44,821 nucleotides of DNA from Candidatus Aminicenantes bacterium. Its GTDB lineage: Archaea; Nanobdellota; Nanobdellia; Woesearchaeales; JAFCCF01. The translations under genes and the position numbers were made by a program. The stretch spans positions 1 through 44,821 of the forward strand of contig JAFCCF010000010.1 of NCBI GenBank assembly GCA_017610325.1. Reading direction: 5' to 3'. A model generated the notes under the pieces. The model searched no databases. It was not told the DNA's origin and saw nothing but the letters and a program-made list of their open reading frames with translations. Every line of letters begins with the position of its first letter. Within the stretch, counting starts at the first letter, position 1. Of this stretch, positions 5,802-33,127 are shown in pieces.

Positions 5802-6420
5802 TTTTCTTCCTCATTAAACTTAGAACATTTTCTGCTGCCTCATCACCTCTTCCCCCATATGAAATCAGGTCAATATACAACTGAGGCAGGGAAATAATCT
5901 TAACACCCCGTATCTCCTGGCTTCCATAAAAATAGTTATCATCAACTATATAACATTTAATATTGCCCTTTTCAGCTGGCATGATGCCTTGTTTTACAAA
6001 TATATTGGAGATTTGCTTTTCTCTACCTTTGAGGATATACAGGTGCACCGTATCTGGCGCAACATAAGGGGCAGCAATCTCTGTAGCTGAAAACAAAGTA
6101 AGGGCATATGTTTCTTTTCTCAGCAAACTACTGATTTTTTTAATTAGATACTGTGGCCTCTCAGCAGCAAGGAACTCTATCTTCTCATTTTCTTTTACAG
6201 AAACTGTACCTGACCAGGCTTGAAGAAGCTTTTCCCAACTGACTACCCTTGCCCCTGCTTTTTTTTTTAAATGCCCGCAGGACACCAGTGTCTCAACTAC
6301 CTTTGCTGTCATTCCAAGAGAAACCTGCGCCTTGCCAGCTAGCTCCCTTAGTCTTAATTTTTTCTGCCTTTCATTCAGCAAAACCCTGATGATGTTTTGG
6401 GTTGATTTGTTTATTATCAT
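5794..6420 (-). CDS. Winged-helix DNA-binding protein, AbiEi-like (candidate antitoxin and autorepressor).
   Basis: The N-terminal wHTH-like segment is IIRVLLNERQKKLRLRELAGKAQVSLGMTAKVVETLVSCGHL, followed by a C-terminal domain of about 140 aa. It sits immediately upstream of, and is translationally coupled to, the NTase gene. Confidence 0.5.
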   Translation of the reverse strand: MIINKSTQNIIRVLLNERQKKLRLRELAGKAQVSLGMTAKVVETLVSCGHLKKKAGARVVSWEKLLQAWSGTVSVKENEKIEFLAAERPQYLIKKISSLLRKETYALTLFSATEIAAPYVAPDTVHLYILKGREKQISNIFVKQGIMPAEKGNIKCYIVDDNYFYGSQEIRGVKIISLPQLYIDLISYGGRGDEAAENVLSLMRKKNV

Positions 6421-6745: not shown

Positions 6746-9616
6746 GTGAAAAATAAAGAAAGGCACCTGTATTACATAGCATTATTTGTATCGCTTTTGG
6801 TAGTTTTTACACCATTGTCAAGTTTCTATGTGTATGCGACTACAACCACAGCATCAACATCTTCTTCGACAAGCTCAACAACCACAAGCACTACAACAAC
6901 TACAACATCAACAACTACTACTACTACTACAACCACAACAGCCTCAACTACAACTACTTCAACCACCACCACAACCCTTGATACAGAACCACCCTCAATT
7001 GGAACAATCCTCAAGATAACAAAGAATGGGGAAGATGTACAGTATATTGGCCCAAATAGCATCAGTGGTGTTGAAATCACTGTTGAGATTACAGAGCCAA
7101 CAAACCCAACTGTGTACTTTGACCTGTCTGCTGTTGGCGGCTCATCAAGTGTTCCTGCCAGAGTTTGTACAAAGTCAGGCACTGTTTGGAAATGCTCGCT
7201 GTTAGATGTTACATTAATGTCACCTACAGGCCAGATTTCAATTGATGTTTCAGCTTCTGATACAGCTGGCAACACTGCAACTAGCACTGTTACCAAAACC
7301 ATCCAGCTTGACAACCTTGGTCCAGATGTCACGTTTATAGGGACTGATAAGCTAGAGAACAGCATCAGCTATGCAAAGACAGCAAAGAACACCCTGGTAG
7401 TCAGGTTATCTGAGACTGGAGCAGGTATTAATGACAATAACATCTTCCTTGACCTTACACAATTTAATGGCATGTACAGTGTTCAGGCAGACAACTGTAC
7501 ACAGGGAGCAGTGTGGGCATGCTATTGGTATAATGTAAATGCATATGGAAGAAATTCAGGAGACAGGCTGAAGATAATTGTCCTGCCAACATCTACAGAT
7601 GATGTTGGAAACCCAGCTTCTGGCTTAAGTGAGGCAGAGATTGTGCTTGATAAGGAACCTCCAAGGCTCCTTAACATAACAATAACCTCAGTTGGCAGCC
7701 TGGGTGAAACAGAATACCACCAGTCAGGAGACCTGCTGAAGATTGAGGCAAATATATCAGACAATGAGTCAAGTGTTACAGCAGTTGCGGATTTATCAAA
7801 CTTGTTTATGTCAGGGCATGATGCAGAGTATGCAACCTGCACTGCATATGGCTCAAACAGTTATACATGCCAGTGGACAACTGATGCAATAAAAACAGGC
7901 TATTACAAGACCATCATTAACTTTAATCTCAGTGACTTTGTTGGCAATGAACTCCTCACAACAGAGAGTATTGAGGTGTTTGAGACAAGTGAAGAAATAC
8001 CCAACAACTTTGTTCTTATTGTTGACGAAGATGAGATGCTGCCTGAGAATGGAGTTAGCAGGCTGACCATGAGCCTGATTGGCAATTATCTCATATCAGT
8101 TCCATTCTATGTCAGCGGCTCAAATGAGGTACTTAGATTAACAGTTGATGAGTGCAAGATTGAGAATGATACTGGTCTTTATACAACATATTTCCAAAAC
8201 CAGCTGAATCCAGACCTGGCAAGACCTGCAACACAGTCAGGCAGGTGGAACAGGGTAGAGTTTTACTTTGGTTATAACGGCGCAAGGTTTTCCTCACCGC
8301 AGATTAATGGCTTGGATGATTTCCGTGTTACATGCAACTTGAATATTTATCAGAAACAGGGTAATGTGGTTTATCCAATTCCTGAGATTGAAAAGTTTGA
8401 GTTTGAGATTGACTTGCGGGATTCTGCTTTAGGCGGACCTCCTGGAGAGGTTGTAGCTGACAAAATACAGCAGACAAAGGATAACTGGCTTACAGAGAGC
8501 AAATGGATAACTGATATTTACAAGTTCCTTGACTGGGCAGAGTTTATCTGCAGGACAGGCAAGAGCCTGGTGATGATGTGGCAGCAGTTCCTTGTGCTTG
8601 AGAATGTTGGCTATGCATTGATGAAAAGCCCTAACACCGCAATGCAGGCAATTGGTAAACCAATTTTCCAGGCGGGGTGTCATGCTTATGAAGGTCTTGG
8701 TGGGATATTCTGGACTGTGTGGTTTGGAGCTGACAAGAGGGCGAAGGGTGCTTCTAAGAGATGCAGTGTTGTATCTGCAGATAACTACATCAAACCACAG
8801 CCTTTGCCTTCCCAGCCAACAACAATTGCAGAGGCACTTAAAAAACCTGAAGGAAAATTTAACATGAGATGGATTTGCGGCTGGGCAACATGTGAATATG
8901 GGTTGCTAGAGCTTAGCGAGTACACTGGCGGTAATGTGATTAATAACATCCTAAGCGGTGTTGATGTTGGTGAGGAAGAGGACCTGAATCAATTCCTAAG
9001 ACAACGCCTGCACATACACCTTGATGATTCATTTAATGCCCGCAATAGCATATTGTTCAGTGCTGCAAGCATGTGCCTGCCAGGTGTGTTCTATAACCTG
9101 AACAAGTACAGGCAGATTAATTGTAAATATATCTCGTGCTTAGAAAATGTCACAACTGCAGGCGGTGACTTTAGTGTGTGTGATGAAGCAAAGAGCCAGG
9201 CATGGTGCCTTAGCTTTTGGGGCGAGGTGTTTGAGGTAATTGGCCCAGCGCGAGTGTTAGGTGTGCTGAGCCAACAGATTAGAGGCATATTTGTAAACTT
9301 TATTCCAGTCACATTAGATAATATATTCAAGAGTGCTGTGTGCGAGAAAACAGACCAAAAGAACTGGGCATATATTTGGTTCTGTGATGTACCTAGTGTC
9401 ATATATTCAGCAATTGACACCTATGGCAGGGCAGCTGGAATTGGGGCTGTGTTTTCAATAGATAAGATGTTCAGCAAGCCAGATGTTGAGGATGTGTGCG
9501 CACAGGTGTTTCCTAAGAACGAGACAAGTGGGGATGATTCAAGCACACCAACCACAACAAATAAGGGCGGTTCATCAACAATAACATTTGGCCCAGATAC
9601 AACAACCACAACATGA
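6746..9616 (+). CDS. 956-aa secreted surface protein with a signal peptide, a 46-aa Ser/Thr stalk, three Ig-like repeats, a Cys-rich C-terminal domain and a Thr tail.
   Basis: A GTG start is preceded by AGGTG 5 nt upstream and TTTAAATATA at 6691-6700. The signal peptide ends in VYA. Repeats run from [EG]PP... to D[TD]AGN/DDVGN/DFVGN. The segment SAASMCLPGVFYNLNKYRQINCKYISC aligns with SASCVCLPAFEGYLKHYKNIADATKQC of the 1873-aa protein. Confidence 0.8.
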   Translation: MKNKERHLYYIALFVSLLVVFTPLSSFYVYATTTTASTSSSTSSTTTSTTTTTTSTTTTTTTTTTASTTTTSTTTTTLDTEPPSIGTILKITKNGEDVQYIGPNSISGVEITVEITEPTNPTVYFDLSAVGGSSSVPARVCTKSGTVWKCSLLDVTLMSPTGQISIDVSASDTAGNTATSTVTKTIQLDNLGPDVTFIGTDKLENSISYAKTAKNTLVVRLSETGAGINDNNIFLDLTQFNGMYSVQADNCTQGAVWACYWYNVNAYGRNSGDRLKIIVLPTSTDDVGNPASGLSEAEIVLDKEPPRLLNITITSVGSLGETEYHQSGDLLKIEANISDNESSVTAVADLSNLFMSGHDAEYATCTAYGSNSYTCQWTTDAIKTGYYKTIINFNLSDFVGNELLTTESIEVFETSEEIPNNFVLIVDEDEMLPENGVSRLTMSLIGNYLISVPFYVSGSNEVLRLTVDECKIENDTGLYTTYFQNQLNPDLARPATQSGRWNRVEFYFGYNGARFSSPQINGLDDFRVTCNLNIYQKQGNVVYPIPEIEKFEFEIDLRDSALGGPPGEVVADKIQQTKDNWLTESKWITDIYKFLDWAEFICRTGKSLVMMWQQFLVLENVGYALMKSPNTAMQAIGKPIFQAGCHAYEGLGGIFWTVWFGADKRAKGASKRCSVVSADNYIKPQPLPSQPTTIAEALKKPEGKFNMRWICGWATCEYGLLELSEYTGGNVINNILSGVDVGEEEDLNQFLRQRLHIHLDDSFNARNSILFSAASMCLPGVFYNLNKYRQINCKYISCLENVTTAGGDFSVCDEAKSQAWCLSFWGEVFEVIGPARVLGVLSQQIRGIFVNFIPVTLDNIFKSAVCEKTDQKNWAYIWFCDVPSVIYSAIDTYGRAAGIGAVFSIDKMFSKPDVEDVCAQVFPKNETSGDDSSTPTTTNKGGSSTITFGPDTTTTT
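6839..6976 (+). repeat. Low-complexity ACN/TCN codon tract encoding a 46-residue Ser/Thr stalk.
   Basis: Read directly: TTTTASTSSSTSSTTTSTTTTTTSTTTTTTTTTTASTTTTSTTTTT, immediately after the predicted signal-peptide cleavage site. Confidence 0.9.
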
Positions 9617-10269
9617 AAATGGCAGGAGAAAATTACTATAATCAGCCAAATTATTATGGCGGAAGGTATGAGGCGCCAGTTGAGCCACCGCACCCACACA
9701 AAAAGTTCAAGCTGATACTTATCATAATCATCTTGCTTATACTTATAACTGCAGTTGTGCTGTATTTCCTTACCTCACCTGAAGACCCAGGCAGCAGGCC
9801 GCGCACAACCACAACAACAGCTGCAAGCACAGTCACAACAACCATGCAGGATATTGTATCAGACGGGCTTGAGATAAGGAACATGCTCTTTGCAGAAAGC
9901 ATCTTTGATGATTACCAGTATGTCACAAGGCAGAGCAACAAGTTTAGGAGAGGAGAGAGTGTCATAATCTTTTTTGAGGTTGCTGGTACAAGCAATAAGA
10001 TGAATATTTACGGCACATATGATGTTAATCTCAGGGAAAGGGTTGAGCTGAGGGACCCGAACGGCCAGAGAATACCTGAGCTAACATACCTGATAGATGA
10101 CAGTGTGCTGCACACATCAAAATCAAAGAACTATATCAAACCATTTGAGTATTTTTTCAACCTGCTGCAGAGCGACCCGCTGGGAACATATATGCAGACA
10201 ATCATAATCGAGGACAAGAACACAGGCAAAATCGCATCAAAGTCAATCACATTCGAGGTAGTTGAATGA
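9613..10269 (+). CDS. Single-pass (type II-like) membrane protein, 218 aa, with a poly-Thr stalk and an extracellular beta-rich domain.
   Basis: ATGA overlap with the upstream gene. The TM helix is KLILIIIILLILITAVVLYFL, followed by RPRTTTTTAASTVTTT. Confidence 0.7.
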   Translation: MKMAGENYYNQPNYYGGRYEAPVEPPHPHKKFKLILIIIILLILITAVVLYFLTSPEDPGSRPRTTTTTAASTVTTTMQDIVSDGLEIRNMLFAESIFDDYQYVTRQSNKFRRGESVIIFFEVAGTSNKMNIYGTYDVNLRERVELRDPNGQRIPELTYLIDDSVLHTSKSKNYIKPFEYFFNLLQSDPLGTYMQTIIIEDKNTGKIASKSITFEVVE

Positions 10270-12362
10270 GAAAAGTAATTTATTGCACTATGTTACTTAT
10301 TATCCTTATATTTGTCCCTATTGTGGCTGCAGAAAAAGCCACTGTTGTGGTGGAGATACAAGACTGTAATAAAATCGGTTTTGATACTAAAATAAAGATT
10401 AGACCTAGAAACGCTTATACAGCAAGTACTGGCTCCTGCACAATAGAAAAATCCAAAGAATCTACATGTACTTGTTATATTGATACCATTGATAAAGGTG
10501 TGGATTATGTAGTTCGCGCATATGTGGATAGTATCTACGTGGACGCGCGTCCTTTTAAAGCGTTTGGAGCAAGTAAAGTTACGTTTCAAGCAGGTGGGTG
10601 GAAGATTGTAGAATGTACCAAAGGTCAAAAAAAGTGCGAAAACGGTTTGCTATGCAAGTGTATAGAAGAGGGTAACCGCATTAAATGGGATTGTAATGCA
10701 TGTGAGGATTATAAAATCTGCCTATCTGGTCAAAATAAATGCAAAAGGCCAGATTGTGATGGGGGGGAGAGCGGAACAACAAAATGTATGGATGGCTTAG
10801 AATGTGCCTGTCTTGGTCCGTTGAACTATTTGTTTTTTGGCCTAATTCCAATACCTGTTCCTAGAGATTATGACTGGTACTGTAAACCTTGCGACTCAAC
10901 AAAAGAATGCAATACAGCTTCTGGAAGATGTGAGATAATCCAAACCCCTGTTGCAGCTGAACAAACATCTGCAACAGAAAAAGAACAATCACCACAACCA
11001 ACAGCAACCTGCAAACCAATTAAGTATGAGGGCGAAAAGAATAAAAAATGCACCCAGAAATGCACCTGCGAAGATGCCCTGTCTGGCAAGCAGTGTGAGG
11101 AAGCTATTCAGAAGATTTTATCAGGTTACAAAATCGTGCAAGTAAATATAGAATCTGCCACAGCAGAGAAAGATAATGTAGAAGCAAAGGACTGCCAGGT
11201 TGATGAGGAAACCAAGGCAGAGCAAGAAGCAAAAGAAGAGGCAAAGCCATTTGTTGATATGATCGTTGATGAGAAATGCAAGAAGCCAGAAGGCCCAACT
11301 AACCCTAGAGACCTGTACAAACTTGTGGGTGAGGCAGAAGCATACTGTGATGTGTATATTGTAATAGGACCCTTTACTTCAGCTACGTATCAAATAATTG
11401 CAGTATGCAAAGAGCAGGTCAGGGAAAAATGTTCCAAAAAGCTGGGTGTTGACTTGGAAATTAAACTTCTCACATGCGACGAAACATGCGATGCACCAAA
11501 GTGCCACTGCCCATCTGAATGCCCGGTGGTTGAAGATAGTGGGGCAAAAGGTACAGTAAGATGGGACCAGGCTCAGTCATGGCATATTACTCAAGGCTGG
11601 AACTGCAGGTATGAGCAAAGAACTGATAAAGCTGGCCAGGACTGCAGCGGTAATTTTCGCGATGGAATCTGTCCAAGATTCTGTTTCTTCTTTAATGATA
11701 TTGACTGTCGCAGCGAGAAGACAGCAGGATACTTCCTCGGAGATATGATTAACAAGTTCATCCAAAAGCAACAGTGGTACATGGACTTCATGCAGTGGGT
11801 TGAGGGCTGGTCAAAGTGGATTGATCCGCAGCAGTGGGCAAAGAGCTGGTGCAACCCAGCTAACCGGGAAGGAGACCTCCTTATCAGCCCAGCAGTTTAC
11901 ACAGATGATGGAGAACCGCTTGCATGGTATGGCGGCGAAATCCAGATATATAATTACACAAGCACAGACACAGTAAGCAGGTATATCTACCTCATAACTT
12001 GGGGCATAGCAAGCCTGGATGTTGATGTGGAATACAAAATCTCACTAATGAAATCCATTGACAGCAGTGCAGTAAAGGCATTTCCAGGAAGAAAAGACTG
12101 GTTTGAACTGGATGCAGGAGAGTCTCACCAGGGCAAGGACACTGCAAAGACATTTTTCCTTAAAGATGTTTACCAATATGTGTGCCTTGAGTTTAATGAG
12201 AGTGTTGAAGGCTCAGCAAGGCACTGCAGAGAGTTTGCAGCAGCAGGAGAGTACAGAGCAACAGGAGACCCTGCAGTTCCTGAAGGCGCAGCTTCAATCG
12301 GGGGCTCAACAGACCCTGCAAATGATAATACAATAAACTGTGAACTAACCAATACATGCTAA
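10266..12362 (+). CDS. 698-aa secreted Cys-rich protein (EGF-like Cys spacing) with a C-terminal W-C...YIYxITW domain.
   Basis: ATGA overlap with the upstream gene. The signal peptide is MRKVIYCTMLLIILIFVPIVAA. Cys residues are numerous. The C-terminal domain is shared with the first CDS and probably with the 1873-aa protein. Confidence 0.75.
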   Translation: MRKVIYCTMLLIILIFVPIVAAEKATVVVEIQDCNKIGFDTKIKIRPRNAYTASTGSCTIEKSKESTCTCYIDTIDKGVDYVVRAYVDSIYVDARPFKAFGASKVTFQAGGWKIVECTKGQKKCENGLLCKCIEEGNRIKWDCNACEDYKICLSGQNKCKRPDCDGGESGTTKCMDGLECACLGPLNYLFFGLIPIPVPRDYDWYCKPCDSTKECNTASGRCEIIQTPVAAEQTSATEKEQSPQPTATCKPIKYEGEKNKKCTQKCTCEDALSGKQCEEAIQKILSGYKIVQVNIESATAEKDNVEAKDCQVDEETKAEQEAKEEAKPFVDMIVDEKCKKPEGPTNPRDLYKLVGEAEAYCDVYIVIGPFTSATYQIIAVCKEQVREKCSKKLGVDLEIKLLTCDETCDAPKCHCPSECPVVEDSGAKGTVRWDQAQSWHITQGWNCRYEQRTDKAGQDCSGNFRDGICPRFCFFFNDIDCRSEKTAGYFLGDMINKFIQKQQWYMDFMQWVEGWSKWIDPQQWAKSWCNPANREGDLLISPAVYTDDGEPLAWYGGEIQIYNYTSTDTVSRYIYLITWGIASLDVDVEYKISLMKSIDSSAVKAFPGRKDWFELDAGESHQGKDTAKTFFLKDVYQYVCLEFNESVEGSARHCREFAAAGEYRATGDPAVPEGAASIGGSTDPANDNTINCELTNTC

Positions 12363-12384
12363 CAAAACAAAAAAAGAGGTGAAG

Positions 12385-14640
12385 ATGAGAAGCAGAAAAA
12401 GCCAAGTAACCTTATATATAATAATAGGTATTTTGCTTGTCATATTCATAACCCTCTTAATATTCTTAGTAAGGGAGAAGAAGCTGCCGAGCCAGCCACC
12501 AGAGATTATCACATTATCTGATAATCTCAATACAGTCAACAACTTTGTTAGGGAGTGTGTCAGACACACCACAATACAGGGCCTTAACCTGCTTGGAAAA
12601 AATGGTGGCTACATAAACCCGTCAAATCTTAATGCAGAATTCTCGCCAGTAGCATATGAATCAGATGTGCTGATATACCAGCCAGATTTCATACCATACT
12701 GGCATTACATAGACAAATCCAATAGCTTCAACAGCTTCAGGCCAAGGCTTTACAAGCAGTCAGAGGGAGATAACAGTATCCAGGAACAACTTAATAATTA
12801 TGTTGAGCATAATCTGAAAGCATGCACAGCTGGGTTTGAAGCATTCCCTGACTTTGACATATCTGAAGGTGATATAAAAGTAGATTCTGAGATAAGAAGC
12901 CAGGAAATTGTTGTGAATGTTATTTATCCGCTTAGGGTTGTTTCAAAATCAAATCAGAGCGCAACAGAGCTCAAGTCATTCAGCAAGTCAGTGGATGTTA
13001 ACCTGATGCAGATTTATGAGTTTGCAACAGAGATAACAAATGCAGAGAAAAAATACACTTTCTTTGAAACAGTCACTATGAATCTCATAAGCGTGTATGC
13101 TGCAATTGACAGTGAGTCACTGCCGCCAACTTCAAGCCTGCTGCTTGGCAGGGACAAGACAATTTGGGTCAGGTCAGAGATTGAGCAAACCATAAAATAT
13201 GATGTGCTTGACTTTATCAGATTAATCCAGCTGCAGAATGCCCTGAACTATAACCCCTTGATAATCAGCCCAGCAGAGCCAGACTATGAACTTAAGCAGG
13301 GCCTGTACAACTCATTCAATTTCCAGCTTGACAGCCACAAGCAGTATAACCTCACTGTCGAATTTATGTACCCGCAGTCACCAATATTCCTCAGCATAGA
13401 TGACAGTGAAATTATCATGCCCGATGACAGGATACCATCAAATTTCTTTACTGACATGATTGGCCTGCAGATTCAGGATTATACATTTGAGTATGACCTT
13501 GCATATCCAATTATTGTTAAGATAAAAGATCCAAAAGCATTTAATTACCAGAGCTATGAGTTCCAGTTTGCGCTTGAAGCAAACATCAGGGACAACACTC
13601 CAATAAACAGCAGCATGGTGCTTACAGCACCTGTAAGACCTCCAAGAAAGATAGATATCAATGAACCTGGGCAGTTAGTGCTTGAACCTCTGATTGTGAC
13701 TGCCAAGGACAAGGTAACTGGCCAGCTATTGAGTGATGTTGATATATATTATAAGTGCGGGCAAAAGGCGTATATTGGCAGGACAGAAAGCGATGGAACA
13801 ATCTTCACTTCTTTTCCATACTGCTTGCTTGGAGGAAAAATAATATACTTAAAGCAGGGCTATCTTGGCTCTGCAATAAGCTACAATAATAATGAACAAT
13901 CAACTCCAAAAGAATTAACAGTTGAGCTCTGGCCAAAGCAGGGCATTGACTTTGAAATCAAGAAAAGGACGCAGCAGAACATTGACAGCCTGGACGTGAG
14001 CAAGACCGGACCACTGCCGCCAGCAGAGAGAAGGCAGCTGGAACTTGAGCAGGCAACCATCATCCCTGCACATCAAAAAATTATCATGACAATCACCCGA
14101 GTAAAGGAAGATGATAATGAAGATACTGTTCCAGTTCCAAGTTTTATCATCCTGCATCCAAATGCAAAGTCTGCAGATGAGATAGAATCAATGAGGCAGG
14201 TTATTGAGGACCAGTACAACATTGGCCAGATTACTGCTGAGCAGAGAAGCGAGGCACTGCAGGCACTGAATGAGTTAGAGAATGTTGAGTTTGGGGATAT
14301 TGATGAGCAGAACACAATTGAGCTTGTGCCAGGAGATTATATCATTGAAAGCTATCTCATGGATTACAGCAGCATAACAATACCCGAGAAGACTGAAACA
14401 GTGGGCACCTGGCCATTTCAAAAAGGAGTCATATACCCTGAGCAGAAGTTTGCAGTGTGGCAAGCTGGCGGCTCAAACCATAATATGACAATAACTGCAA
14501 ACCAGCTATATTCAGCAGACCAGGTAACACTGTATGTGTTTGACCTCGGGCTTCCGAGCACATGGGATGAGCTTGTAAACCTTAAGTCAGTTGATGATTA
14601 CAGTGAATATAATTATCTGTTAGAACCATCATTCACATGA
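12385..14640 (+). CDS. About 751-aa surface protein with a class III (prepilin-like) signal peptide. Paralog 2 of 3.
   Basis: The ATG at 12385 follows a GAGGTG site; the ORF track's GTG at 12379 lies inside that site. The N-terminus is MRSRKSQVTLYIIIGILLV. Family blocks are FVRECVRHTTIQGLNLLGKNGGY, IPYWHYI, LNNYVEHNLKACTAGF and FQFALEANIRDN. A CarboxypepD_reg-like segment reads AKDKVTGQLLSDVDIYYKCGQKAYIGRTESDGT. Confidence 0.8.
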   Translation: MRSRKSQVTLYIIIGILLVIFITLLIFLVREKKLPSQPPEIITLSDNLNTVNNFVRECVRHTTIQGLNLLGKNGGYINPSNLNAEFSPVAYESDVLIYQPDFIPYWHYIDKSNSFNSFRPRLYKQSEGDNSIQEQLNNYVEHNLKACTAGFEAFPDFDISEGDIKVDSEIRSQEIVVNVIYPLRVVSKSNQSATELKSFSKSVDVNLMQIYEFATEITNAEKKYTFFETVTMNLISVYAAIDSESLPPTSSLLLGRDKTIWVRSEIEQTIKYDVLDFIRLIQLQNALNYNPLIISPAEPDYELKQGLYNSFNFQLDSHKQYNLTVEFMYPQSPIFLSIDDSEIIMPDDRIPSNFFTDMIGLQIQDYTFEYDLAYPIIVKIKDPKAFNYQSYEFQFALEANIRDNTPINSSMVLTAPVRPPRKIDINEPGQLVLEPLIVTAKDKVTGQLLSDVDIYYKCGQKAYIGRTESDGTIFTSFPYCLLGGKIIYLKQGYLGSAISYNNNEQSTPKELTVELWPKQGIDFEIKKRTQQNIDSLDVSKTGPLPPAERRQLELEQATIIPAHQKIIMTITRVKEDDNEDTVPVPSFIILHPNAKSADEIESMRQVIEDQYNIGQITAEQRSEALQALNELENVEFGDIDEQNTIELVPGDYIIESYLMDYSSITIPEKTETVGTWPFQKGVIYPEQKFAVWQAGGSNHNMTITANQLYSADQVTLYVFDLGLPSTWDELVNLKSVDDYSEYNYLLEPSFT

Positions 14641-16520
14641 AAAGAAAAGCACAGATATCAAACTTTGTAATGATTGGCATCATACTAGTGCTAGCTACTG
14701 GCTTGTTCCTGTTCCTTAAGTACAAGGTATTGCTGTCTGGGCCGCAGGAAATAGTGCCGCCAGAATATGAACCTATAAAGGACTTTGTTGAGTTATGCAT
14801 GAAAGAGCAGGCAAAAGAGGCAATCATAATGCTTGGCCAGCAGGGTGGCTTTGTTGAGCTGCCAAATAGGATTGGGAACAATCCATTTGCCTATATTGAG
14901 TTTATTAAAGGTGGTCTGTTCAGGGTGCCGTTGTGGTATTACATGGGCGAGTCACGAATACCTTCCCCTGGTACAATAGAAAACCAGATTGAGATATACA
15001 TACAACAGAACCTTGAAACCTGCCTGCAGAATTTTACCAATTTCCAGAATGATTTCATAATAACAAACACAACATTAGATGTCAAGGCAGCATTAGCTGA
15101 CAAGGATGTCATGGTAAGTGCCTTTTTTCCATTAACTGTAACAAGCAGAACTGACAACCAGGTCGGAAAAATCACATTGTTCAGTACAAAGCTTGATGTA
15201 AAACTGAGAAAGCTGTATGAGCTTGCAGAAGCTATTATGGAAGAGGAAAATAGGGGCATGTTCATAGAAAACACAACCATTGACCTTATGGTACTTGAGC
15301 CAAATATTCCTACCACTGACCTGCTCTTAAAATGCGGAAGACTAACCTGGTACAAGAGCGATGTTATTGATGAACTAAAAGAATCCCTTTTCTATAACCT
15401 GCCAAGGATAAGGATAGCTAACACAGACTATGAACCATTCAGAGACGAGGAACAGTATGGCAAAAGTAAATTTGTTTGGGATGTCACAAAAAAGAAGTAT
15501 CCTGATGTAAGTGTTGGCCTGAGATATGAGCAGGAATGGCCCTTAACAATGAGAGTAAGACCAAGTGACGGCAATGTCATGAAGTCCAACTATGGCAAGG
15601 GCATGAGCGCTTACCTGCATTTCCTGTGCATCAACCTGTTCCACTTTACTTATGATGTTACATACCCTGTTGAAGTTACATTAAGAGAGCCAACTTCCTT
15701 CGGTGGTGAAGGCTATACCTTCAGGTTTGGCTTCCCAGTATACATCGACCATAATGAAGGCATGAGGGATGACTTTGCACGCACTGACTTTGGCATACCT
15801 GATATAGGGGGCGATTTCTGCGAGGAAACAACAGAACGAACCTTTTTTGTCAGGGCAGTTGACAGTAGGACTAGCCTGGACCTTAAGGATGTTAATATTT
15901 CCCTGGAATGTATCAGGCACTTGTGTAACCTTGGCAAGACAAGCTATGATGGCCTGTATTACAGGCTGCAGACACCCCTGCTTAAAGTGTGCCCAATTGG
16001 AATGATTACTGCAGAACATCCCGATTATCTCCCCGCAGAGCAGATTGCTGATTATAGGACTGCTGACCAGGAGATTGTGCTCCAGATGAGGCCGCTCAAG
16101 GAGTTTGAGTACACTGTTGTCAAGCATTACTCATCTGATCCAAGGTGGCCAATCGGGCTTGGCAAGAATCAATATGCTGTGATTGCAATAGAGGATGCTG
16201 AAAATGACTTTGCTGTGTTTGACAACTATCCCAAGCACTATGCAATATTTGAAAAGAACATGACACTTATCAAGGATACAGAAGATTACAAACTGGAAAT
16301 AATGCTTATGGAGGATGACAAATATATTGGAGGCTACAAAGGCATCTGGAATACCTCATATGAGGAGCTGGCAGATAACACACACCTCACCTTCCATGTA
16401 ATTGAATATTCCCCTCAGCCAACTACAGACGAGGAGACTGGGGCAATGATTGCATACCTGGAAGACCAAGCAAGCTATCCAGAAAGCACAAGACCTAGCT
16501 TTAGCATAGGATTTGAATGA
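14637..16520 (+). CDS. 627-aa surface protein with a class III (prepilin-like) signal peptide. Paralog 3 of 3.
   Basis: ATGA overlap with the upstream gene. The N-terminus is MKRKAQISNFVMIGIILVLATGLFLF. Family blocks are FVELCMKEQAKEAIIMLGQQGGF, VPLWYYM, IEIYIQQNLETCLQNF and FRFGFPVYIDHNE. Confidence 0.8.
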   Translation: MKRKAQISNFVMIGIILVLATGLFLFLKYKVLLSGPQEIVPPEYEPIKDFVELCMKEQAKEAIIMLGQQGGFVELPNRIGNNPFAYIEFIKGGLFRVPLWYYMGESRIPSPGTIENQIEIYIQQNLETCLQNFTNFQNDFIITNTTLDVKAALADKDVMVSAFFPLTVTSRTDNQVGKITLFSTKLDVKLRKLYELAEAIMEEENRGMFIENTTIDLMVLEPNIPTTDLLLKCGRLTWYKSDVIDELKESLFYNLPRIRIANTDYEPFRDEEQYGKSKFVWDVTKKKYPDVSVGLRYEQEWPLTMRVRPSDGNVMKSNYGKGMSAYLHFLCINLFHFTYDVTYPVEVTLREPTSFGGEGYTFRFGFPVYIDHNEGMRDDFARTDFGIPDIGGDFCEETTERTFFVRAVDSRTSLDLKDVNISLECIRHLCNLGKTSYDGLYYRLQTPLLKVCPIGMITAEHPDYLPAEQIADYRTADQEIVLQMRPLKEFEYTVVKHYSSDPRWPIGLGKNQYAVIAIEDAENDFAVFDNYPKHYAIFEKNMTLIKDTEDYKLEIMLMEDDKYIGGYKGIWNTSYEELADNTHLTFHVIEYSPQPTTDEETGAMIAYLEDQASYPESTRPSFSIGFE

Positions 16521-19500
16521 TGAAGAGAGCGACATTTGTAATATTTGTAATGATTTTGTTAGTTGCTGGAATAGCTACAGCAACAACAACTACTTCCACT
16601 ACTACTACAACCACCACCACAATTGACATCAGCGGCCCTCTCTTCATCAACACAGTTATTCCTGAGTTTTACAATGATGTTGAACTGGATATTGAGCTTC
16701 TCACAAAACCATCTGCTGAGGTATTTATCTATGTCAATGGCGAGCTCAAAAGACACAGTGTCATGGATGCAACAGGATTTTACAGGTTTGCTGATGTCAC
16801 ACTTAACCAGAACCTTTTCGAGAACAAAATCAATATTGAGGCAAAGGATTCAACTGGTTCTGTGTCCCAGGATTTCAGTGTAAAGCTTGACCTTATACCA
16901 CCTACAGTTACTCTCAAGAACCTTACAGATTTCACTGACCAGGCTACGCTGACTGTGCAGGGTACAGTTAGTGAGGATGTAAATGCAATTTTCTACCTGA
17001 GCTATGAAAGCGGGGAGAAATTCATTGAGCATAAGACAGACATTGCAGCTGGCTCGTTTTCAGAGACCGTCAACTTCAACAAGGGGGAGGGCAATTATGA
17101 GCTTGAGATAAAATTCAATGACTCTGGAGGGAACATTGTAGCAAAAACAGTAGATATTGCAATGGATGCAAGCCCGCCTGCAATAAACCTTAACCCTGCA
17201 CTTAACCAATTATCACCTTCATATGTTGATACGGTGAGGATTAAGGGCACCACAGACCCGAATGCACTGATTATTGTGTTTGTCAATGAGAAAACCTCAA
17301 CACATAAGAGCTATAGCCTAGGTGTTGTATCGATACTTGAAAAGCTTGGCAGGCTTGTTGAGGGTAAGACAGAATTACACACAACAGCTGACGGCGAAGG
17401 TAACTTTATGATTGATGTTCAGCTCACCCAGGACATTGCGGTGAGGAGCGAGGACTCTATTACCATAACACGCCCAGGTGGTACTGGGTATGTTGAGGAG
17501 ATCAGGTATTCAACAGGCAACCAGTGGCGCAACTCCATCAAGATTGTTGCAATTGACAAGTATGAGAGGGAATCACAGCCAATCACAGGCGAGATTATGT
17601 ATGCATACTGCGGTGCAGGCGGTTACTGGGGCGTCACTATTGAGAACCCAACACCAAGTATAATCCAGCCAATCCATCTGTTAAGAGGCATTGCAAGCCT
17701 TGGCTTTAACTACAGGCTTGAATGGAATGGGCCAGGCGATGCAAGCAAGGCTCGCATCAATGGCAGGCCAAGAATTGCGAAGTACACAAAGCTCAGCGGT
17801 GAGGAGTCCAAGGAATATGACAATGACCTGATTCCGTCTGGAGATATCTTCTCCCAGTTCAGCCAGCAGGCAAAAGTTGGCAGTGTAACTATTAACCTGA
17901 TGAAATGGCAGAAAACTGAGCAGGAGATTGAGGACATGGGGAAACTCAAGTTTTTCCTTGAGATGGAAATTCCCTACACCTTTGACTATTACGGTGCTAT
18001 TGGCACTGGCAGGCAGAGGAAGTGTATACCAATACATATCCAGGTTGACAAGAACATCATGGCGCACATTCCAGATGGCATGCTCAAGTTTGGTGTCAAG
18101 GCATTGAATGCAACCATTGATGTTATTGATACAGTGTTGGATGTTGTGGAAGATGTAAGGAAATTTACATTTGTAGGCTGCATTGCAATGCAATATGGCT
18201 ATAACCAGTGGATGTGGATAAAGGAAAAGCTTGCATGCGTATCATATGCTACCAACTTATTCACTCCACCTGTGCCAGAGCATGGAGAAACAATTGAACT
18301 GGCATGCAGCAAGGAAGGTGACAAGCAGGAAGATTGCGAGAAATGCTGGGAAGCAAAGGTCAGCAGGAGAAAAGCAGAAAAAACAATGCAGTGGGTGTGC
18401 GACCGTGTTTATTGCCCAGCTGCGCCAAGTGTCGAATATTATGCGCAAGAGCAGAAATCAAACCAGAACAAAATTTACTATTATTTTGAAGATGATGAGC
18501 CAGTTGTGTACCAGGGCAGCCAGTGCTATGATTACGATGCACTGAGGCCATCTTATTCTATACCTGCCAGCTCTGAAAACATTGATTCCTGCGGCAAAGA
18601 ATACAAGTATGAATGGGATCCAGCATGCATCTCAGTTGATGAGTACAGGAAGTCATTCAAGGAAACCTATGACACAAACTTCTTCAACAGCTTTGTGGAC
18701 TTTACAAGCGACATCTGCAGCAAGGGCGAGAAAGACCAATATGTAAGAACATTTGAGGCAAATGTGCTTGGTAAAAAGCATCCTTACCTTGTTATCAAGC
18801 TAAAAGGTGATACATCAGTAAATGACCCAACAGCTAACATGCATCTTAAGAGGTCAGGCTCTGAAAGGGTTGACTTCCAGTATGAGTTTGACAAGGGTGA
18901 GGGAGGAGATGGTATCAGGAACTATGGCCAGGACCGCGAGGTAAAGATTAAGCTGGTTAGCTTTACTTACCTTTACAAAAAAGGCTATAGGCTGTTTAAC
19001 AGAAGCGAGAGAACTAATGGTGTTGCACCAAAGGTTCATGAATGGAGAGAAGCATTTATCTCAGAGTCAGGTGTTATGGCTGATCTCGATAGGGCAGTTA
19101 ACGAGATTATGGGACTTCCGGATTATAATTATTATGACAAGTATTACCAGTGCAATGATGGCATTGACAATGACGATGATGGCCTTATAGACTTTACAAC
19201 AAAGGATGGTGACCCTGATTGTACTTCAGTCTATGATGATACTGAAAGCGAAGATAGGCCTCCATCAGGCGACCTTGCCAAGGATCCGCAGGAGGTTGGC
19301 AAATGGCTTGCACAGAAGTATTGTATACCCCCTGAAGCTGGGGAATCAAAGAAACAAGACGATGCTAATAAAGAAACTCTAGAAGCACAGAGCGGGTGTG
19401 ACGCGTACAGTTCTAAGTTCCCCAACAAGGGCAATGACAAAGATTTGCTTACCTGCAAGACCCGGGCAGAGAACCATTGTGATGTAATCCATGCCCAGAC

Positions 19501-22138
19501 TTCTGAGACTGAGAAAGAAAAAGACCTACAAAGCAAACAAGAACAAGATGAGGGCCAGCTCAAGGAAAAGCTTATTGCAGAAATATATAATCTTATCCAG
19601 CAGGATGTATTTGATCAGAGATACCAAGACAAATGGGTTGTTGATCCAACCTCTGGTCTGCTAAGAAGCGCATCGTGCGTGTGCCTGCCTGCATTTGAAG
19701 GTTATCTAAAACATTACAAAAACATTGCAGATGCAACCAAGCAGTGCTTTAACCAGATTTTATTAACAGGAGATACAACAGCCCAGTTCTGCAAAGCGGT
19801 CATGACGCAGTATGTCTGCGACATTATACATTCCTCACTTAAGTGCGTTGGTAAGATGTTTGGAGAAAACCTTCTGAACGCTGGCACTAACAAGGCTCAC
19901 GAAGGAGGGGGCATTGGCAGTTTCCTTGGTGCATTGTTTGGTGCAAGCGAGTCTGTTGGTAAGTCAGTAGAGAATAGGTATGGTGCAACATCAATGTTTA
20001 ATGTGATGTACCGCGAGCAGGGTTTGTGGAACTCTGCCTGTTTGGCAGCATGGGGTGGTGACTGGAATATTGAGCTTGAAAATTTGTTTGTCCGCGCCCA
20101 GGAACGGCTGCCATTAAAGAGCTTGGTATATGTGTTCCCGTCAACAAGAAGATATTTTTCAACTAACATTATAACTGGCCTGCCAACATATGTATATCAC
20201 GTAGGGTTTGGAGCGCTTGCTGGCGCAAATGTGCAGAATCTAAGGGTACAGCTGGTGTGTTCAACAGACACAACATGCGACCCAGGAGATAATTACCAGA
20301 ATGGCATATGCGACTGTTATTACACCAGGAATGACTGCCCAACTGGCGGCTGTGTACACTCACTCAGGGTGCCTGGCAGTTTAAAAAATGGGGAAACATA
20401 TTCATATGATTTCTATGAAAAGGTAGAAACCTCAAAGGTCAGGTTTGATAAGGTCAGGGTCACATATGAGTATATAGACAATAAAAATGAGAGGCAGCAG
20501 GTCAAAGAAGAATTCCCAATAAGCCTGATAGGCGGCAGCCCGCCTGCAGAGTGTACCTTTGATGTTACAAGCCTCATGTTCAGTTGCGGCATAGACACCG
20601 GGGTAAAAGGCACAGCATACTTTAACGGCATACCACGGTTTATTTCCCAAACGCCAACATTTATGATCGGCGATATGATAAAACTGCAGGGTACACTAAC
20701 AAAGATGAGTCCAAAAGACAATCCAAACTCGCCAATGTACCTTGTTGCAAAGGTCACTGACCAGGACGGAGTCATTATAGGGGGCAGTCCAAAATACTGG
20801 CACCTGCAGAGGGATGGCTCATACACCCTGGACCAAGATTCTTTGTTTACTATGGGTGTGCCAGGATTATCAATCCAAGAAAATCATTTTAGCTCAGTAG
20901 GCGGACAGTCAAGAGTCAAGGAAGGCACGAGGCGGCAAGGTGTCTATGCAACAATCGATGGCCAGCTCAGGCAAAATATAGCAATAGAATTAGGGGGTAC
21001 AGTGAATAATAGTGACTGGGATATTAAGTTTAACATCATAACACAGGGCGACGTATACATCAATGATCCTTGCGCTGAAGCTGATTATAAGGATTGTATA
21101 CTCAAAAAAGGTGGACCTAACTCCTTTGAGATTGATGGAGTCACAATTATACTTCAGGGAATTCCACTGGCATCAGATCAAAGCGGGCGATACTCAGATA
21201 CAATCAACCTCCAGCCTCAGTCAGGTATTGAGCGTAACTGGAAGGTTGAGATTTCTCTGCATTATGCAAAAGAGGATGACCCTGCAAACTATGATCCAAC
21301 ACCTATAGATGCTAACGGCGAGCAGCGCTATTCAATTCCATTTAAGGTAATAAATGCATATTCTCCAACAGCAGGCAAGTGCAGCAAATCATCTGAACAA
21401 AACTCGTTGAAAAATGATAACCCTACATGCAGGTGTGGTGTGACCTCTGAGAACAACTGCCCAACTAAGACTAACAAGTATTGTTATGGTGGTGTGTGCA
21501 GGAAGTTCCCTGCCTGTGATATAGATGCCACAAACCCGATTAAAGACTCATGCGTTTGCGATCCTTCAACAGGTGCAGGAAAAACAGATTGTAAGGTTGA
21601 CACAGACCCTAACAAGAAATCCTACTGCTACAAGGATGATGATGCAGAAACCCCAATCTGCCATGACGAAGCAAAGACACCCACACCCATAACTCCTTCA
21701 GCACCAACAACACCTGCTATTAATCTTGTGAGTATCACAGGTCTTGTGAAAAATTGCCGCAGTGCTTGCAAACTTAAACCAGATGCAGCCAATAAGTTAA
21801 AAGAAGCGCAGACAATAGCAGAGCGGGAAGGCTATAATCTCTGTGTTTTTGATTCATATAGGACAGAAGCTAGACAAAAGGAGCTCTATGACCTGCTTAA
21901 TCCGCAAAATATGCCAGTGTGCGGTCCAGACTTTGCCAATTGCCCTCATGTTAATGGTGGTGCAGTGGATATGAGGCTTTGTGATAATGACGGTAAATAC
22001 CTTGAAAGCAACGATAATTATAAAAAGCTGCAGAGAATAATGATTGAAGCAGGGTGGGCGTGGTTTAGAAGAGAACTACAGCATTTCGAATATGGAACAA
22101 CTAGTTGGAGAGGGGCAACAAATAATGAGTTCGGCTGA
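16517..22138 (+). CDS. 1873-aa giant secreted multidomain protein. Domains in order: poly-Thr stalk, Ig-like repeats, Cys-rich domains, a D-x-D Ca-binding-like motif, EGF-like Cys cluster, Pro/Thr linker and a C-terminal M15/LAS peptidase-like domain.
   Basis: ATGA-type overlap with the upstream gene. The N-terminus is MMKRATFVIFVMILLVAGIATATTTTSTTTTTTTT. Repeats end in DSTGS/DSGGN. It contains CNDGIDNDDDGLIDFTTKDGDPDC. The C-terminal motifs are SYRTEARQKELY, H1811-x6-D1818 (HVNGGAVD) and H1856 (ELQHFEY). Confidence 0.85.
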   Translation: MMKRATFVIFVMILLVAGIATATTTTSTTTTTTTTIDISGPLFINTVIPEFYNDVELDIELLTKPSAEVFIYVNGELKRHSVMDATGFYRFADVTLNQNLFENKINIEAKDSTGSVSQDFSVKLDLIPPTVTLKNLTDFTDQATLTVQGTVSEDVNAIFYLSYESGEKFIEHKTDIAAGSFSETVNFNKGEGNYELEIKFNDSGGNIVAKTVDIAMDASPPAINLNPALNQLSPSYVDTVRIKGTTDPNALIIVFVNEKTSTHKSYSLGVVSILEKLGRLVEGKTELHTTADGEGNFMIDVQLTQDIAVRSEDSITITRPGGTGYVEEIRYSTGNQWRNSIKIVAIDKYERESQPITGEIMYAYCGAGGYWGVTIENPTPSIIQPIHLLRGIASLGFNYRLEWNGPGDASKARINGRPRIAKYTKLSGEESKEYDNDLIPSGDIFSQFSQQAKVGSVTINLMKWQKTEQEIEDMGKLKFFLEMEIPYTFDYYGAIGTGRQRKCIPIHIQVDKNIMAHIPDGMLKFGVKALNATIDVIDTVLDVVEDVRKFTFVGCIAMQYGYNQWMWIKEKLACVSYATNLFTPPVPEHGETIELACSKEGDKQEDCEKCWEAKVSRRKAEKTMQWVCDRVYCPAAPSVEYYAQEQKSNQNKIYYYFEDDEPVVYQGSQCYDYDALRPSYSIPASSENIDSCGKEYKYEWDPACISVDEYRKSFKETYDTNFFNSFVDFTSDICSKGEKDQYVRTFEANVLGKKHPYLVIKLKGDTSVNDPTANMHLKRSGSERVDFQYEFDKGEGGDGIRNYGQDREVKIKLVSFTYLYKKGYRLFNRSERTNGVAPKVHEWREAFISESGVMADLDRAVNEIMGLPDYNYYDKYYQCNDGIDNDDDGLIDFTTKDGDPDCTSVYDDTESEDRPPSGDLAKDPQEVGKWLAQKYCIPPEAGESKKQDDANKETLEAQSGCDAYSSKFPNKGNDKDLLTCKTRAENHCDVIHAQTSETEKEKDLQSKQEQDEGQLKEKLIAEIYNLIQQDVFDQRYQDKWVVDPTSGLLRSASCVCLPAFEGYLKHYKNIADATKQCFNQILLTGDTTAQFCKAVMTQYVCDIIHSSLKCVGKMFGENLLNAGTNKAHEGGGIGSFLGALFGASESVGKSVENRYGATSMFNVMYREQGLWNSACLAAWGGDWNIELENLFVRAQERLPLKSLVYVFPSTRRYFSTNIITGLPTYVYHVGFGALAGANVQNLRVQLVCSTDTTCDPGDNYQNGICDCYYTRNDCPTGGCVHSLRVPGSLKNGETYSYDFYEKVETSKVRFDKVRVTYEYIDNKNERQQVKEEFPISLIGGSPPAECTFDVTSLMFSCGIDTGVKGTAYFNGIPRFISQTPTFMIGDMIKLQGTLTKMSPKDNPNSPMYLVAKVTDQDGVIIGGSPKYWHLQRDGSYTLDQDSLFTMGVPGLSIQENHFSSVGGQSRVKEGTRRQGVYATIDGQLRQNIAIELGGTVNNSDWDIKFNIITQGDVYINDPCAEADYKDCILKKGGPNSFEIDGVTIILQGIPLASDQSGRYSDTINLQPQSGIERNWKVEISLHYAKEDDPANYDPTPIDANGEQRYSIPFKVINAYSPTAGKCSKSSEQNSLKNDNPTCRCGVTSENNCPTKTNKYCYGGVCRKFPACDIDATNPIKDSCVCDPSTGAGKTDCKVDTDPNKKSYCYKDDDAETPICHDEAKTPTPITPSAPTTPAINLVSITGLVKNCRSACKLKPDAANKLKEAQTIAEREGYNLCVFDSYRTEARQKELYDLLNPQNMPVCGPDFANCPHVNGGAVDMRLCDNDGKYLESNDNYKKLQRIMIEAGWAWFRRELQHFEYGTTSWRGATNNEFG
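21770..22138 (+). other. Peptidase M15 (VanY / L-Ala-D-Glu peptidase-like, LAS zinc metallopeptidase) domain at the C-terminus of the giant protein.
   Basis: The pattern FDSYRTEARQKELY ... CPHVNGGAVDM ... GWAWFRRELQHFEYG corresponds to the S-x-[YF]-R-[ST]-x-x-x-Q, H-x6-D and terminal-His zinc/catalytic motifs of M15 D,D- and L,D-peptidases. Confidence 0.65.
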
Positions 22139-22152
22139 GCAATTTAATTAAA

Positions 22153-22977
22153 ATGTTTTTCTCAGGTATGATTTCAGAGCTAAATACTTCATTAAGAAGA
22201 TTATATGAGAAGCTTGGCTATATCTTGCTGTGCATGGTTCTTGACCTGCTGTTCTTTTTTGTGTATGGGATTGTATCTTTTTTTGCAATGAGTGTTGTGT
22301 ATAAGCTGATTAATGACCTTTCTGGATATCTCTCTGCATCGCCAGAGCTTGTTGTAAGCCTTGCATCTGACCCATTGTATAAGCAGCAGCTGAACGAGCT
22401 CTTGGTAGTGGTGCTGATTGCCATTGCTTTTACATATGTCATCTACACAATACTGCATGGCATAAACTGGTTCATTGTCAGCAGGAAACTGCTCAACTAT
22501 AAGATTAAGTTCTGGACTTATATTGGAAAATTTGCTGTCACAAGCCTGCTATGCTTTTCATCAATAGCTATTTTGGTTGTTGCTTATCTTAAAATATCAT
22601 TTACATCTTTATTTGAGTCCCAGCAAATTGCGTGGATTATATTCCTTGTGCTGCTGTTTATTGTGTTGTGGTTTGGGTTTATAACACATGCACTTGCGCC
22701 AAGCAACAAGCTCAAGGACATCTATAAGAAAACATTCAGAATTGGAATCAAGAAAGCGCATTATGTGCTGCTGATATATGCTGTGCTGGTCATCATTGGA
22801 ATTATTATCAATTTTATCCTTAGCTTGTTTGGAAAACTCAGCCCAGGACTTTTGTATGCTGGCGGAATCCTGCTGTTCCTGCCATTCATGACATTCTTCA
22901 GAACACACCTGACTCAGACCATTAACAAACTAGATAAAAACAATAAGAAGAAAAATAAAACAAAAAAGAGAAGATAA
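22153..22977 (+). CDS. Polytopic membrane protein (274 aa) with a Lys-rich C-terminus. Paralog of 4249..5082.
   Basis: It has about 6 hydrophobic segments and starts 14 nt after the giant gene. It shares sequence blocks with the 4249 gene. Confidence 0.75.
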   Translation: MFFSGMISELNTSLRRLYEKLGYILLCMVLDLLFFFVYGIVSFFAMSVVYKLINDLSGYLSASPELVVSLASDPLYKQQLNELLVVVLIAIAFTYVIYTILHGINWFIVSRKLLNYKIKFWTYIGKFAVTSLLCFSSIAILVVAYLKISFTSLFESQQIAWIIFLVLLFIVLWFGFITHALAPSNKLKDIYKKTFRIGIKKAHYVLLIYAVLVIIGIIINFILSLFGKLSPGLLYAGGILLFLPFMTFFRTHLTQTINKLDKNNKKKNKTKKRR

Positions 22978-27339: not shown

Positions 27340-30561
<3,222 letters not shown>

Positions 30562-33076: not shown

Positions 33077-33127
33077 TTTAGATTCCCCCAATATGAGTTT
33101 ATAATGATTGTGATGAATATATACTAT

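Follow-up and report, generated by a model that had tools for sequence, protein, structure and literature searches.

Pilin-type N-termini on a family of large surface proteins encoded with secreted adhesin-like proteins in Woesearchaeota and Nanoarchaeota

Introduction

Why would archaeal proteins of 627 to 780 amino acids (aa) begin like type IV pilins? The question is raised by three paralogous genes, designated A, B and C, on contig JAFCCF010000010.1 of assembly GCA_017610325.1, the 44,821 nucleotides of which are referred to as the window in the rest of the text. This stretch of chromosome belongs to a tiny archaeon of the symbiotic DPANN type and codes for the ribosomal proteins S3Ae and S6e-like, an intein-containing GyrB, triose-phosphate isomerase and other housekeeping proteins, and the nearest homologs of A, B and C bear Woesearchaeota or Nanoarchaeota labels. 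An earlier note, made from the sequence alone, had read class III (prepilin-like) signal peptides at the N-termini of all three products.

An archaeal class III cleavage site has Gly, Ala or Ser at position −1 and a charged residue at −2, and precedes a hydrophobic domain (PMC4371748). The sites of the Methanococcus maripaludis pilins processed by the peptidase EppA, which requires Gln at +1, are RAQI, KGQV, KGQV, KGQL and KGQI (PMC4371748). Modular pilins and large class III substrates other than pilins are already known types of protein; a description of the present family, of its main domain or of its gene cassette was not found in the literature searched. The reading that we favour, and that we hold to be fairly probable as a whole, is that A, B and C are class III-processed, helix-anchored partners of secreted adhesins.

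Results

Three divergent paralogs of one large surface-protein family

The earlier note described three open reading frames (ORFs) of 627-780 aa; they have 780, 751 and 627 aa, and coordinates and N-termini were found as it described them (Table 1). The precursors begin with MKKRG/QITLYIIIGLILLL (A), MRSRKS/QVTLYIIIGILLV (B) and MKRKA/QISNFVMIGIILV (C), where the slash marks the predicted cut. Homology of the bodies, which it had also claimed, was borne out by blastp (E = 1.2e-49 with 28% identity over 616 aa for A and B, 6e-39 for B and C, 2.3e-24 for A and C; pairwise identities of 23-28%), and the sequence blocks that it singled out correspond to the invariant alignment columns C58, G74-G75, W106 and C147. 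B and C proved to be in tandem and translationally coupled through an ATGA overlap, with the third copy, A, in the other of two gene modules (A in module 1, B and C in module 2). One point needs correcting: the ORF upstream of A does not belong to a giant protein, as the ortholog in the syntenic related locus L004 has 658 aa. C in turn overlaps the next gene, coding for a 1873-aa protein, by 4 nt (16517/16520). The likely start of B is the ATG at 12385, because it lies 5 nt downstream of the ribosome-binding site AGAGGTGA; a GTG at 12379 was rejected as it falls within that site.

The family comprises at least 9,412 cluster representatives: a profile built from 17 members and searched against 1.84 billion representatives matched this number at E≤1e-3 and 1,767 at E≤1e-30, in most cases over the full length of about 700-800 aa. 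A word-indexed homolog search recovered just 16 relatives. Scanning one genome per GTDB species returned 505 pattern matches, among which were 346 relatives, and 78 distinct loci were kept. The titles of these loci name Woesearchaeota, Nanoarchaeota, Nanoarchaeia, a generic "uncultured archaeon" or "uncultured Methanosarcinales". We regard the last label as unreliable because the loci that bear it have the gene order common to the Nanoarchaeia- and Woesearchaeota-labelled loci. Among the loci found, the family is seen only in Woesearchaeota and Nanoarchaeota (DPANN archaea), with several paralogs per genome. The best genome match to the window proteins was merely 27-34% identical, and the lineage of the window itself is therefore not among the species representatives.

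A, B and C fall into three distinct subfamilies, each with its own conserved neighbourhood, and these are old subfamilies of one large unannotated surface-protein family. Members of the A subfamily are flanked by a secreted protein of about 660 aa upstream and by the membrane protein c1 (see below) downstream; the best match of A beyond the close relative L004, L014:4981-7347, has the same gene context. Pfam gave no match at E≤0.1 for A, B or C, NCBIfam gave none for the three proteins, and a PDB sequence-profile search with the family gave none, so that the known enzyme or solute-binding family that the earlier note had named as a finding that would refute its idea did not appear. A 2026 screen for class III signals characterised its candidates by their Pfam domains, and for this family there was hence no domain that it could have used. 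Relatives were also absent from the IMG/VR viral contigs; on this ground, and with a window full of housekeeping genes, a viral or mobile origin was rejected.

Three "mini" members of about 250 aa, a size typical of pilins, were seen at L027:6377-7135(-), L027:18212-19000(-) and L033:3344-4108(-). The class III-type N-terminus of the family is shared by two of these, and all three keep only the core of the first ectodomain.

A class III-type motif is the most conserved segment of the family

Conservation of the N-terminus was measured on 160 sequences, namely the 150 best profile matches and the proteins of the first homolog search, two sets that overlap. The profile search scores the whole protein and is thus essentially unbiased regarding the N-terminus; by comparison, the genome scan used a motif-sharing subset of the family, and the matched N-termini of its loci are biased by construction, with the second and third members per locus adding further evidence. 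The motif was present in 153 of the 160 sequences, and the seven without it include ones that start inside or after the helix. Lys or Arg occupies position −3 in 135 of these 153 sequences and position −2 in 150, while −1 is Gly in 96, Ala in 43 and Ser in 14 (Gly in A, Ser in B and Ala in C). Position +1 is Gln in 147 sequences and in all three window paralogs, +2 is Ile, Val or Leu in 146, +3 is Thr in 137, +5 is Phe or Tyr in 150 (Phe in 129, Tyr in 21) and +9 is Gly in 139. The resulting 13-residue consensus is K-K-[GAS]/Q-[IV]-T-x-[FY]-[IV]-I-[IL]-G-I. This 13-mer (KKGQITIFIIIGI) is the most conserved segment of the family, with 3.15 bits per column in an alignment of 117 sequences, in which the globular domain reaches 1.86 and the linker 1.22. 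The motif usually begins 1-23 residues from the called start, and occasionally up to 48 residues from it, and keeps its place at the start of the hydrophobic helix, which extends over about 22 residues. Judged by sequence, the N-termini agree with an archaeal class III signal in the residues at −1 and −2 and in the placing of the site before the helix, which is the prepilin-peptidase pattern proposed by the earlier note.

The motif is also specific. Across 1.29 Mb of related DNA, [KR][GAS]Q precedes the first hydrophobic stretch in 111 of 115 family members and in just 13 of 352 other ORFs with an N-terminal hydrophobic stretch. Eleven of the 13 are pilin-sized (134-288 aa) and have the N-terminus KRG/QTGIGLVILGVVAII, and one more is a small pilin encoded beside a T2SSE ATPase. 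The occurrence of the motif is not due to chance. The window holds an internal control in its 218-aa single-pass membrane protein, whose basic-then-hydrophobic segment (...HKKFKLILIIIILL...) is without the motif, and the large neighbours of 956, 698 and 1873 aa have ordinary Sec signal peptides. No site of the type cut by signal peptidase I was read in the sequences after the helix of A, B or C, and the helix is too long for a cleavable Sec signal.

Two further ORFs of the window are pilin-like, with the N-termini MKKRA/TIELSANFLVVV and MRKRG/SLSLSVNAIVILV, in which +1 is Thr or Ser rather than Gln (35138-35722 (-) and 37510-38010 (-)). They flank a 495-aa Cys-rich protein (35719-37206 (-)), the signal sequence of which ends in a lipobox-like Cys, and this pair of families is seen again in L062.

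The same cleavage motif occurs on pilins of filament loci in the lineage

The EppA-processed Epd pilins of M. maripaludis, which belong to type IV filament system 1, share with the family the processing motif [KR]-[GA]/Q-[IV] and a short basic leader before the hydrophobic domain. Epd pilins are small proteins with Glu at +5, whereas the family members of the window have 627-780 aa, Phe or Tyr at +5 and a linker after the helix, and are encoded outside a filament locus. System 1, the Epd type, comprises two split platform genes and a dedicated peptidase and is found in DPANN archaea (2026 preprint, bioRxiv 10.64898/2026.04.22.720090).

The DPANN lineage of the family has loci that resemble system 1, with an ATPase and two split platform genes. 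The metagenome-assembled genome (MAG) behind locus L021, which carries the family, codes for a T2SSE ATPase (E = 1e-40), two T2SSF proteins (E = 3e-12 and 6e-13) and a pilin starting KKKA/QAAMEFLM; these filament genes lie 6 kb from the family gene on the opposite strand, with housekeeping genes between. The ATPase and the two T2SSF genes of L085 are followed by pilins with NKKA/QAAMEF, NKG/QAATEF and KKS/QTWSF. Judging from the pilin N-termini of L021 and L085, the G/Q, S/Q and A/Q junctions of the window are all found on genuine pilins of the lineage. The T2SSE ATPase has more than 7,000 close relatives, and many of the best named matches are labelled Woesearchaeota or Nanoarchaeota.

Three woesearchaeal type IV filament loci (L085:7776-19680, L086:7650-13332 and L021:2-5590) have a conserved gene order, in which a protein of about 610-780 aa with a helix-turn-helix-like N-terminus and faint TPR matches is followed by the T2SSE ATPase and the two split T2SSF proteins. 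L085 then adds a run of small K[GAS]/Q pilins and an 806-aa MopE-like protein. An A24 peptidase gene does not adjoin these loci.

The ectodomain combines a predicted, provisionally new alpha/beta domain with beta-sandwiches

The AlphaFold2 (AF2) model of full-length B, computed from 17 sequences (pLDDT 76.6), consists of a helix (aa 3-32), a linker modelled with low confidence (aa 33-47), an alpha/beta region to about aa 410, a beta-sandwich (Table 1), a helical hairpin and a second strand-rich domain, probably also a beta-sandwich. A second model, of B aa 1-432 from 117 sequences, reached a pLDDT of 93.9 and a pTM of 0.86. Foldseek searches with the alpha/beta ectodomain gave no credible neighbour, the best E being 0.017 in PDB and 0.018 in BFVD, with query-length TM-scores of at most 0.14. 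Double hot-dog thioesterases and actin capping protein ranked highest and were rejected, with a probability of at most 0.10 and a TM-score of at most 0.17 by either normalisation. By comparison with PDB and BFVD, the modelled ectodomain provisionally appears to be a new fold.

Searched with Foldseek against PDB, full-length B matched 5aq0, the carboxypeptidase D transthyretin-like domain (TM-target 0.81, probability 1.00), followed by the CnaB2 domain 8bdw (0.62), 1qmu, 3mn8 and Gram-positive pilin domains. The CarboxypepD_reg-like sandwich that the earlier note placed once in each paralog stands for B on its structure, and for A and C through the alignment, but no Pfam hidden Markov model recognised it at E≤0.1. 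Type IV pilins were also matched by full-length B, alongside the beta-sandwich proteins and with low whole-chain TM-scores; none occur among the listed Foldseek matches of the N-terminal domain. The N-terminal helix is not predicted to run on in the manner of pilin alpha1: in both AF2 models helix 3-32 is followed by a lower-confidence linker of about 14 residues (aa 33-45) and then by a helix at aa 46-72.

Family genes are coupled to genes for large secreted proteins

A typical cassette consists of a first family member (about 720 aa), a secreted protein of about 1050 aa, a protein of about 500-980 aa, a c1 of about 290 aa, a second member (about 660 aa) and a large secreted protein. Throughout the related loci, 82 of 112 full-length family genes have a gene for a large secreted protein immediately downstream of them on the same strand, the commonest spacing being a 4-nt overlap (50 cases), and c1 lies directly upstream of a family gene in 24 cases. 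The large partners have Sec signal peptides and no membrane anchor. They give weak but recurrent matches to bacterial immunoglobulin (Ig)-like domains (Big_3_3 in 8 of 23) and have a Cys-rich C-terminal region; weak PDB matches to Ig-domain proteins include a streptococcal surface protein. The c1 proteins, which are polytopic membrane proteins of about 220-330 aa with no Pfam match, recur in 32 related loci; in their first transmembrane helix a single Asp is near-invariant (F..DLLF).

The order of the genes in the window is permuted relative to the typical cassette, and the parts are identical (Table 1). Module 1 consists of the secreted protein upstream of A, A itself and c1. Module 2 runs from the 956-aa, 218-aa and 698-aa proteins through B and C to the 1873-aa protein and a c1-superfamily protein. 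The C-terminus of the 1873-aa protein (21770-22138) resembles LAS/VanY L-Ala-D-Glu peptidases (Pfam VanY, E = 9e-4; phage endolysin PDB 2vo9, E = 4e-4), a sequence likeness that hints at action on the bacterial cell wall. Aligned by blastp, the window protein and its L004 ortholog match up to window residue 1715, and by this measure the L004 protein may lack the domain.

An AbiEi antitoxin-like gene and an AbiEii-like nucleotidyltransferase gene (5094-6420 (-)) lie between the two surface-protein modules. The pair looks like an insertion because it is absent at the same position in the close relative L004, which has the same gene order otherwise. Long poly-Thr/Ser tracts, probably glycosylated spacers, follow the signal peptide or membrane helix of the 956-aa, 218-aa and 1873-aa proteins (all on the plus strand). 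Elsewhere, a family member is fused in frame to a downstream secreted protein without signal peptide (L072:3-4976(+) and L022:9810-12599(+)); these ORFs could be real fusions or frameshift errors of the MAGs.

Table 1. Features of the two surface-protein modules, in window coordinates.
Feature	Coordinates	Strand	Description
Secreted protein upstream of A	3..1898	+	C-terminal ~630 aa; ortholog of 658 aa
Paralog A	1914..4256	+	780 aa; Cys-rich insertion in C-terminal beta-sandwich
Class III-type signal of A	1914..1997	+	Leader MKKRG, predicted cut before Q6, hydrophobic helix QITLYIIIGLILLLFIMLGLYLF
c1 polytopic membrane protein	4249..5082	+	Closes module 1; no Pfam match
956-aa secreted protein	6746..9616	+	Homolog of Ig-repeat proteins (~1050 aa) encoded after first-member genes in other loci
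218-aa single-pass membrane protein	9613..10269	+	Poly-Thr tract; helix without [GAS]Q motif
698-aa secreted protein	10266..12362	+	Sec signal peptide; no known domain
Paralog B	12385..14640	+	751 aa; first-member subfamily of the cassette
Class III-type signal of B	12385..12471	+	Leader MRSRKS (Ser at −1), predicted cut before Q7, helix QVTLYIIIGILLVIFITLLIFLV
Conserved alpha/beta ectodomain of B	12520..13614	+	aa 46-410; confident AF2 model
Transthyretin-/CarboxypepD_reg-like beta-sandwich of B	13690..13974	+	aa ~436-530; range inferred from strand-rich region
Paralog C	14637..16520	+	627 aa; second-member subfamily
Class III-type signal of C	14637..14717	+	Leader MKRKA, predicted cut before Q6, helix QISNFVMIGIILVLATGLFLFL
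1873-aa partner of C	16517..22138	+	Sec signal peptide, poly-Thr tract, weak Ig-like matches, no membrane anchor
c1-superfamily polytopic membrane protein	22153..22977	+	Closes module 2; hhalign against c1: 97.3% probability, E 2e-11

Other features of the window

The DNA gyrase B gene (27340-30561 (+)) is interrupted by an intein, with Intein_splicing matched at aa 447-869 and a weak HNH-like match inside. The S3Ae (30623-31477 (+)) and S6e-like (39741-40280 (+)) proteins have Lys/Glu-rich C-terminal extensions that share an identical stretch of 22 aa, ETRKEQSSFVSQKPKVSVKPAE. A 162-aa ORF (32603-33091 (-)) codes for five tandem VKTVKSKPKV-like decapeptides followed by a Cys/His-rich tail.

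Discussion

Our proposal for how these proteins reach and serve the cell surface is as follows. The signal, Q-[IV]-[TS]-x-[FY]-[IV]-I-[IL]-G with its helix of about 22 residues, would be of the class III kind, as cut by the Methanococcus EppA. The precursor would be inserted via Sec, and a signal peptidase of class III would cut off the leader immediately in front of the Gln, at the cytoplasmic face, leaving a mature protein that retains the conserved hydrophobic helix at its N-terminus. This helix would hold an ectodomain of 600-750 aa at the cell surface; it may do so by anchoring the protein in the membrane, or the Epd-like type IV filament machinery of the lineage may mount the protein into or onto a fibre, in the manner of a modular minor pilin or a subunit of a bindosome. 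The ectodomain, which would comprise the new alpha/beta domain followed by beta-sandwiches, at least one of them transthyretin-like, may hold or organise the secreted, anchor-less Ig-repeat protein whose gene comes directly after, usually with translational coupling. With the polytopic c1 joining them, the proteins would together form a cell-surface adhesion or host-contact module. We consider it quite likely from the sequence that the signal is a cleaved class III site; we incline to think that the family functions together with the downstream secreted protein, and incorporation into a fibre seems rather doubtful.

Several observations weigh against this proposal. Position +5 is Phe or Tyr, not the Glu of EppA-type and bacterial pilins, and the pilins of the filament loci in the lineage keep the Glu (QAAMEF). 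The Glu at +5 of pilins serves subunit packing, not cleavage. No Peptidase_A24 gene was found in the window, in about 1.29 Mb of related loci or adjoining two type IV filament loci. A search of polytopic ORFs for a GxGD-like motif of a prepilin peptidase gave none, and a Pfam scan of 45 polytopic ORFs of the related loci turned up M50 proteases, transporters and two T2SSF proteins, again with no Peptidase_A24. Neither of two profiles for such signals, Class_IIIsignal (Pfam) and arch_flag_Nterm (NCBIfam), was among the matches of the three N-termini, searched as their first 45 aa; both also miss the small pilins of the lineage, searched as full proteins, and the two pilin-like ORFs of the window, and seem not to cover this lineage. 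The cassettes are unlinked to type IV filament genes, which lie within 10 kb in one of 81 loci (L021). Such linkage is not obligatory, as the pilA genes of Haloferax and the bindosome proteins are also unlinked (PMC4371748). The models of B predict a lower-confidence linker that parts the helix from the body, with no continuous pilin alpha1, and the proposed adhesion and partner interaction are argued from gene neighbourhood and from the weak Ig-like and LAS-peptidase matches. The c1 protein was considered as a dedicated peptidase and rejected, as it has just one conserved Asp and no Pfam match.

Some of these observations would suit an ordinary type II signal anchor that stays uncleaved and owes its conservation to helix-helix contact with a membrane component, such as the co-encoded c1. 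The flexible linker joins helix and body as in a simple anchor, a c1 with its near-invariant transmembrane Asp recurs in the cassettes, peptidase and type IV filament genes are lacking there, and +5 is not Glu. However, conservation peaks at the cytoplasm-facing K-K-[GAS]-Q boundary, which has no obvious role in helix packing. The same boundary motif is carried by pilin-sized proteins and by the pilins of filament loci in the lineage, and it equals the mapped EppA sites, whereas the genuine anchor of the 218-aa neighbour is without it. We consider an uncleaved anchor, the main rival reading, unlikely on these grounds.

The family might instead polymerise through its N-terminal helices into a thick type IV-like fibre of its own, as a major pilin of unusual size. 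High conservation of the helix, including the Gly at +9, the existence of relatives of about 250 aa and the presence of several paralogs per genome are consistent with this. Bodies of 600-850 aa on a flexible linker would be hard to fit into a helical pilin lattice, though, and the Glu at +5, linkage to an ATPase or platform gene and any pilin fold among the Foldseek results are all missing; the consistent pairing is with secreted adhesin-like proteins. A self-assembling fibre is accordingly given very little weight. The earlier note had pointed to the Sulfolobus bindosome as a precedent, and class III-anchored solute-binding receptors feeding ABC transporters would indeed bear the same kind of signal on a large non-pilin body, but this reading is the least probable, and sequence, fold and neighbourhood, as far as they go, exclude a solute-binding role, as no solute-binding family was matched in Pfam, NCBIfam, PDB sequences or among the Foldseek matches listed, and no ABC transporter is among the conserved cassette genes. 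The precedent thus applies to the kind of signal and not to the bodies or their neighbours: the bindosome proteins of Sulfolobus and Saccharolobus (GlcS, AraS, TreS) have solute-binding folds and are encoded beside ABC transporters, whereas the body of the present family has no recognisable fold family and its partners are secreted, adhesin-like Ig-repeat proteins and the polytopic c1.

The proposal of class III-processed partners of adhesins has parallels in concept among modular pilins. PilB and PilC of Streptococcus sanguinis likewise bear a large adhesion module on a pilin-type N-terminus (PMC8179133, PMC9934059). They are bacterial proteins encoded in a pilus locus, with a canonical pilin module and a continuous alpha1, whereas no pilin module was recognised in the family. 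The archaeal minor pilins of arCOG02911 (about 250-550 aa; PMC4858521), FlaFind-positive proteins well above the size of major pilins and with Ig-like beta domains, resemble the family, and type IV filament systems associate with large adhesins (PMC4858521; bioRxiv 10.64898/2026.04.22.720090), which resembles the context of the family. Going by their descriptions, arCOG02911 and the adhesins of filament loci are set apart by their occurrence in filament loci of Euryarchaeota and Thermoproteota, and by the main domain of the family, which is alpha/beta and not all-beta.

A bolder version can be put forward as a speculation that we think improbable on present grounds. The family, the coupled Ig-repeat proteins and c1 might constitute a DPANN-specific surface organelle of large class III-processed "modular pilins" with a new fold, built by Epd-like filament machinery and displaying adhesins and, in this genome, a peptidoglycan peptidase towards a host cell. 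If true, such an organelle would be the adhesion or attack counterpart of the bindosome.

How Woesearchaeota and other DPANN archaea attach to or exploit other cells is little understood, and to our knowledge Woesearchaeota have no cultivated representative. Almost always encoded beside large adhesin-like proteins, the family described here is a good candidate for a part of the cell-contact machinery of these archaea. Through it, the few large class III substrates that are not pilins would come to include adhesion-type modules besides nutrient-binding proteins. Its pilin-type signal also offers a testable handle: the mature N-terminus should be a defined one, and the proteins should depend on a class III peptidase and possibly on the type IV filament ATPase.

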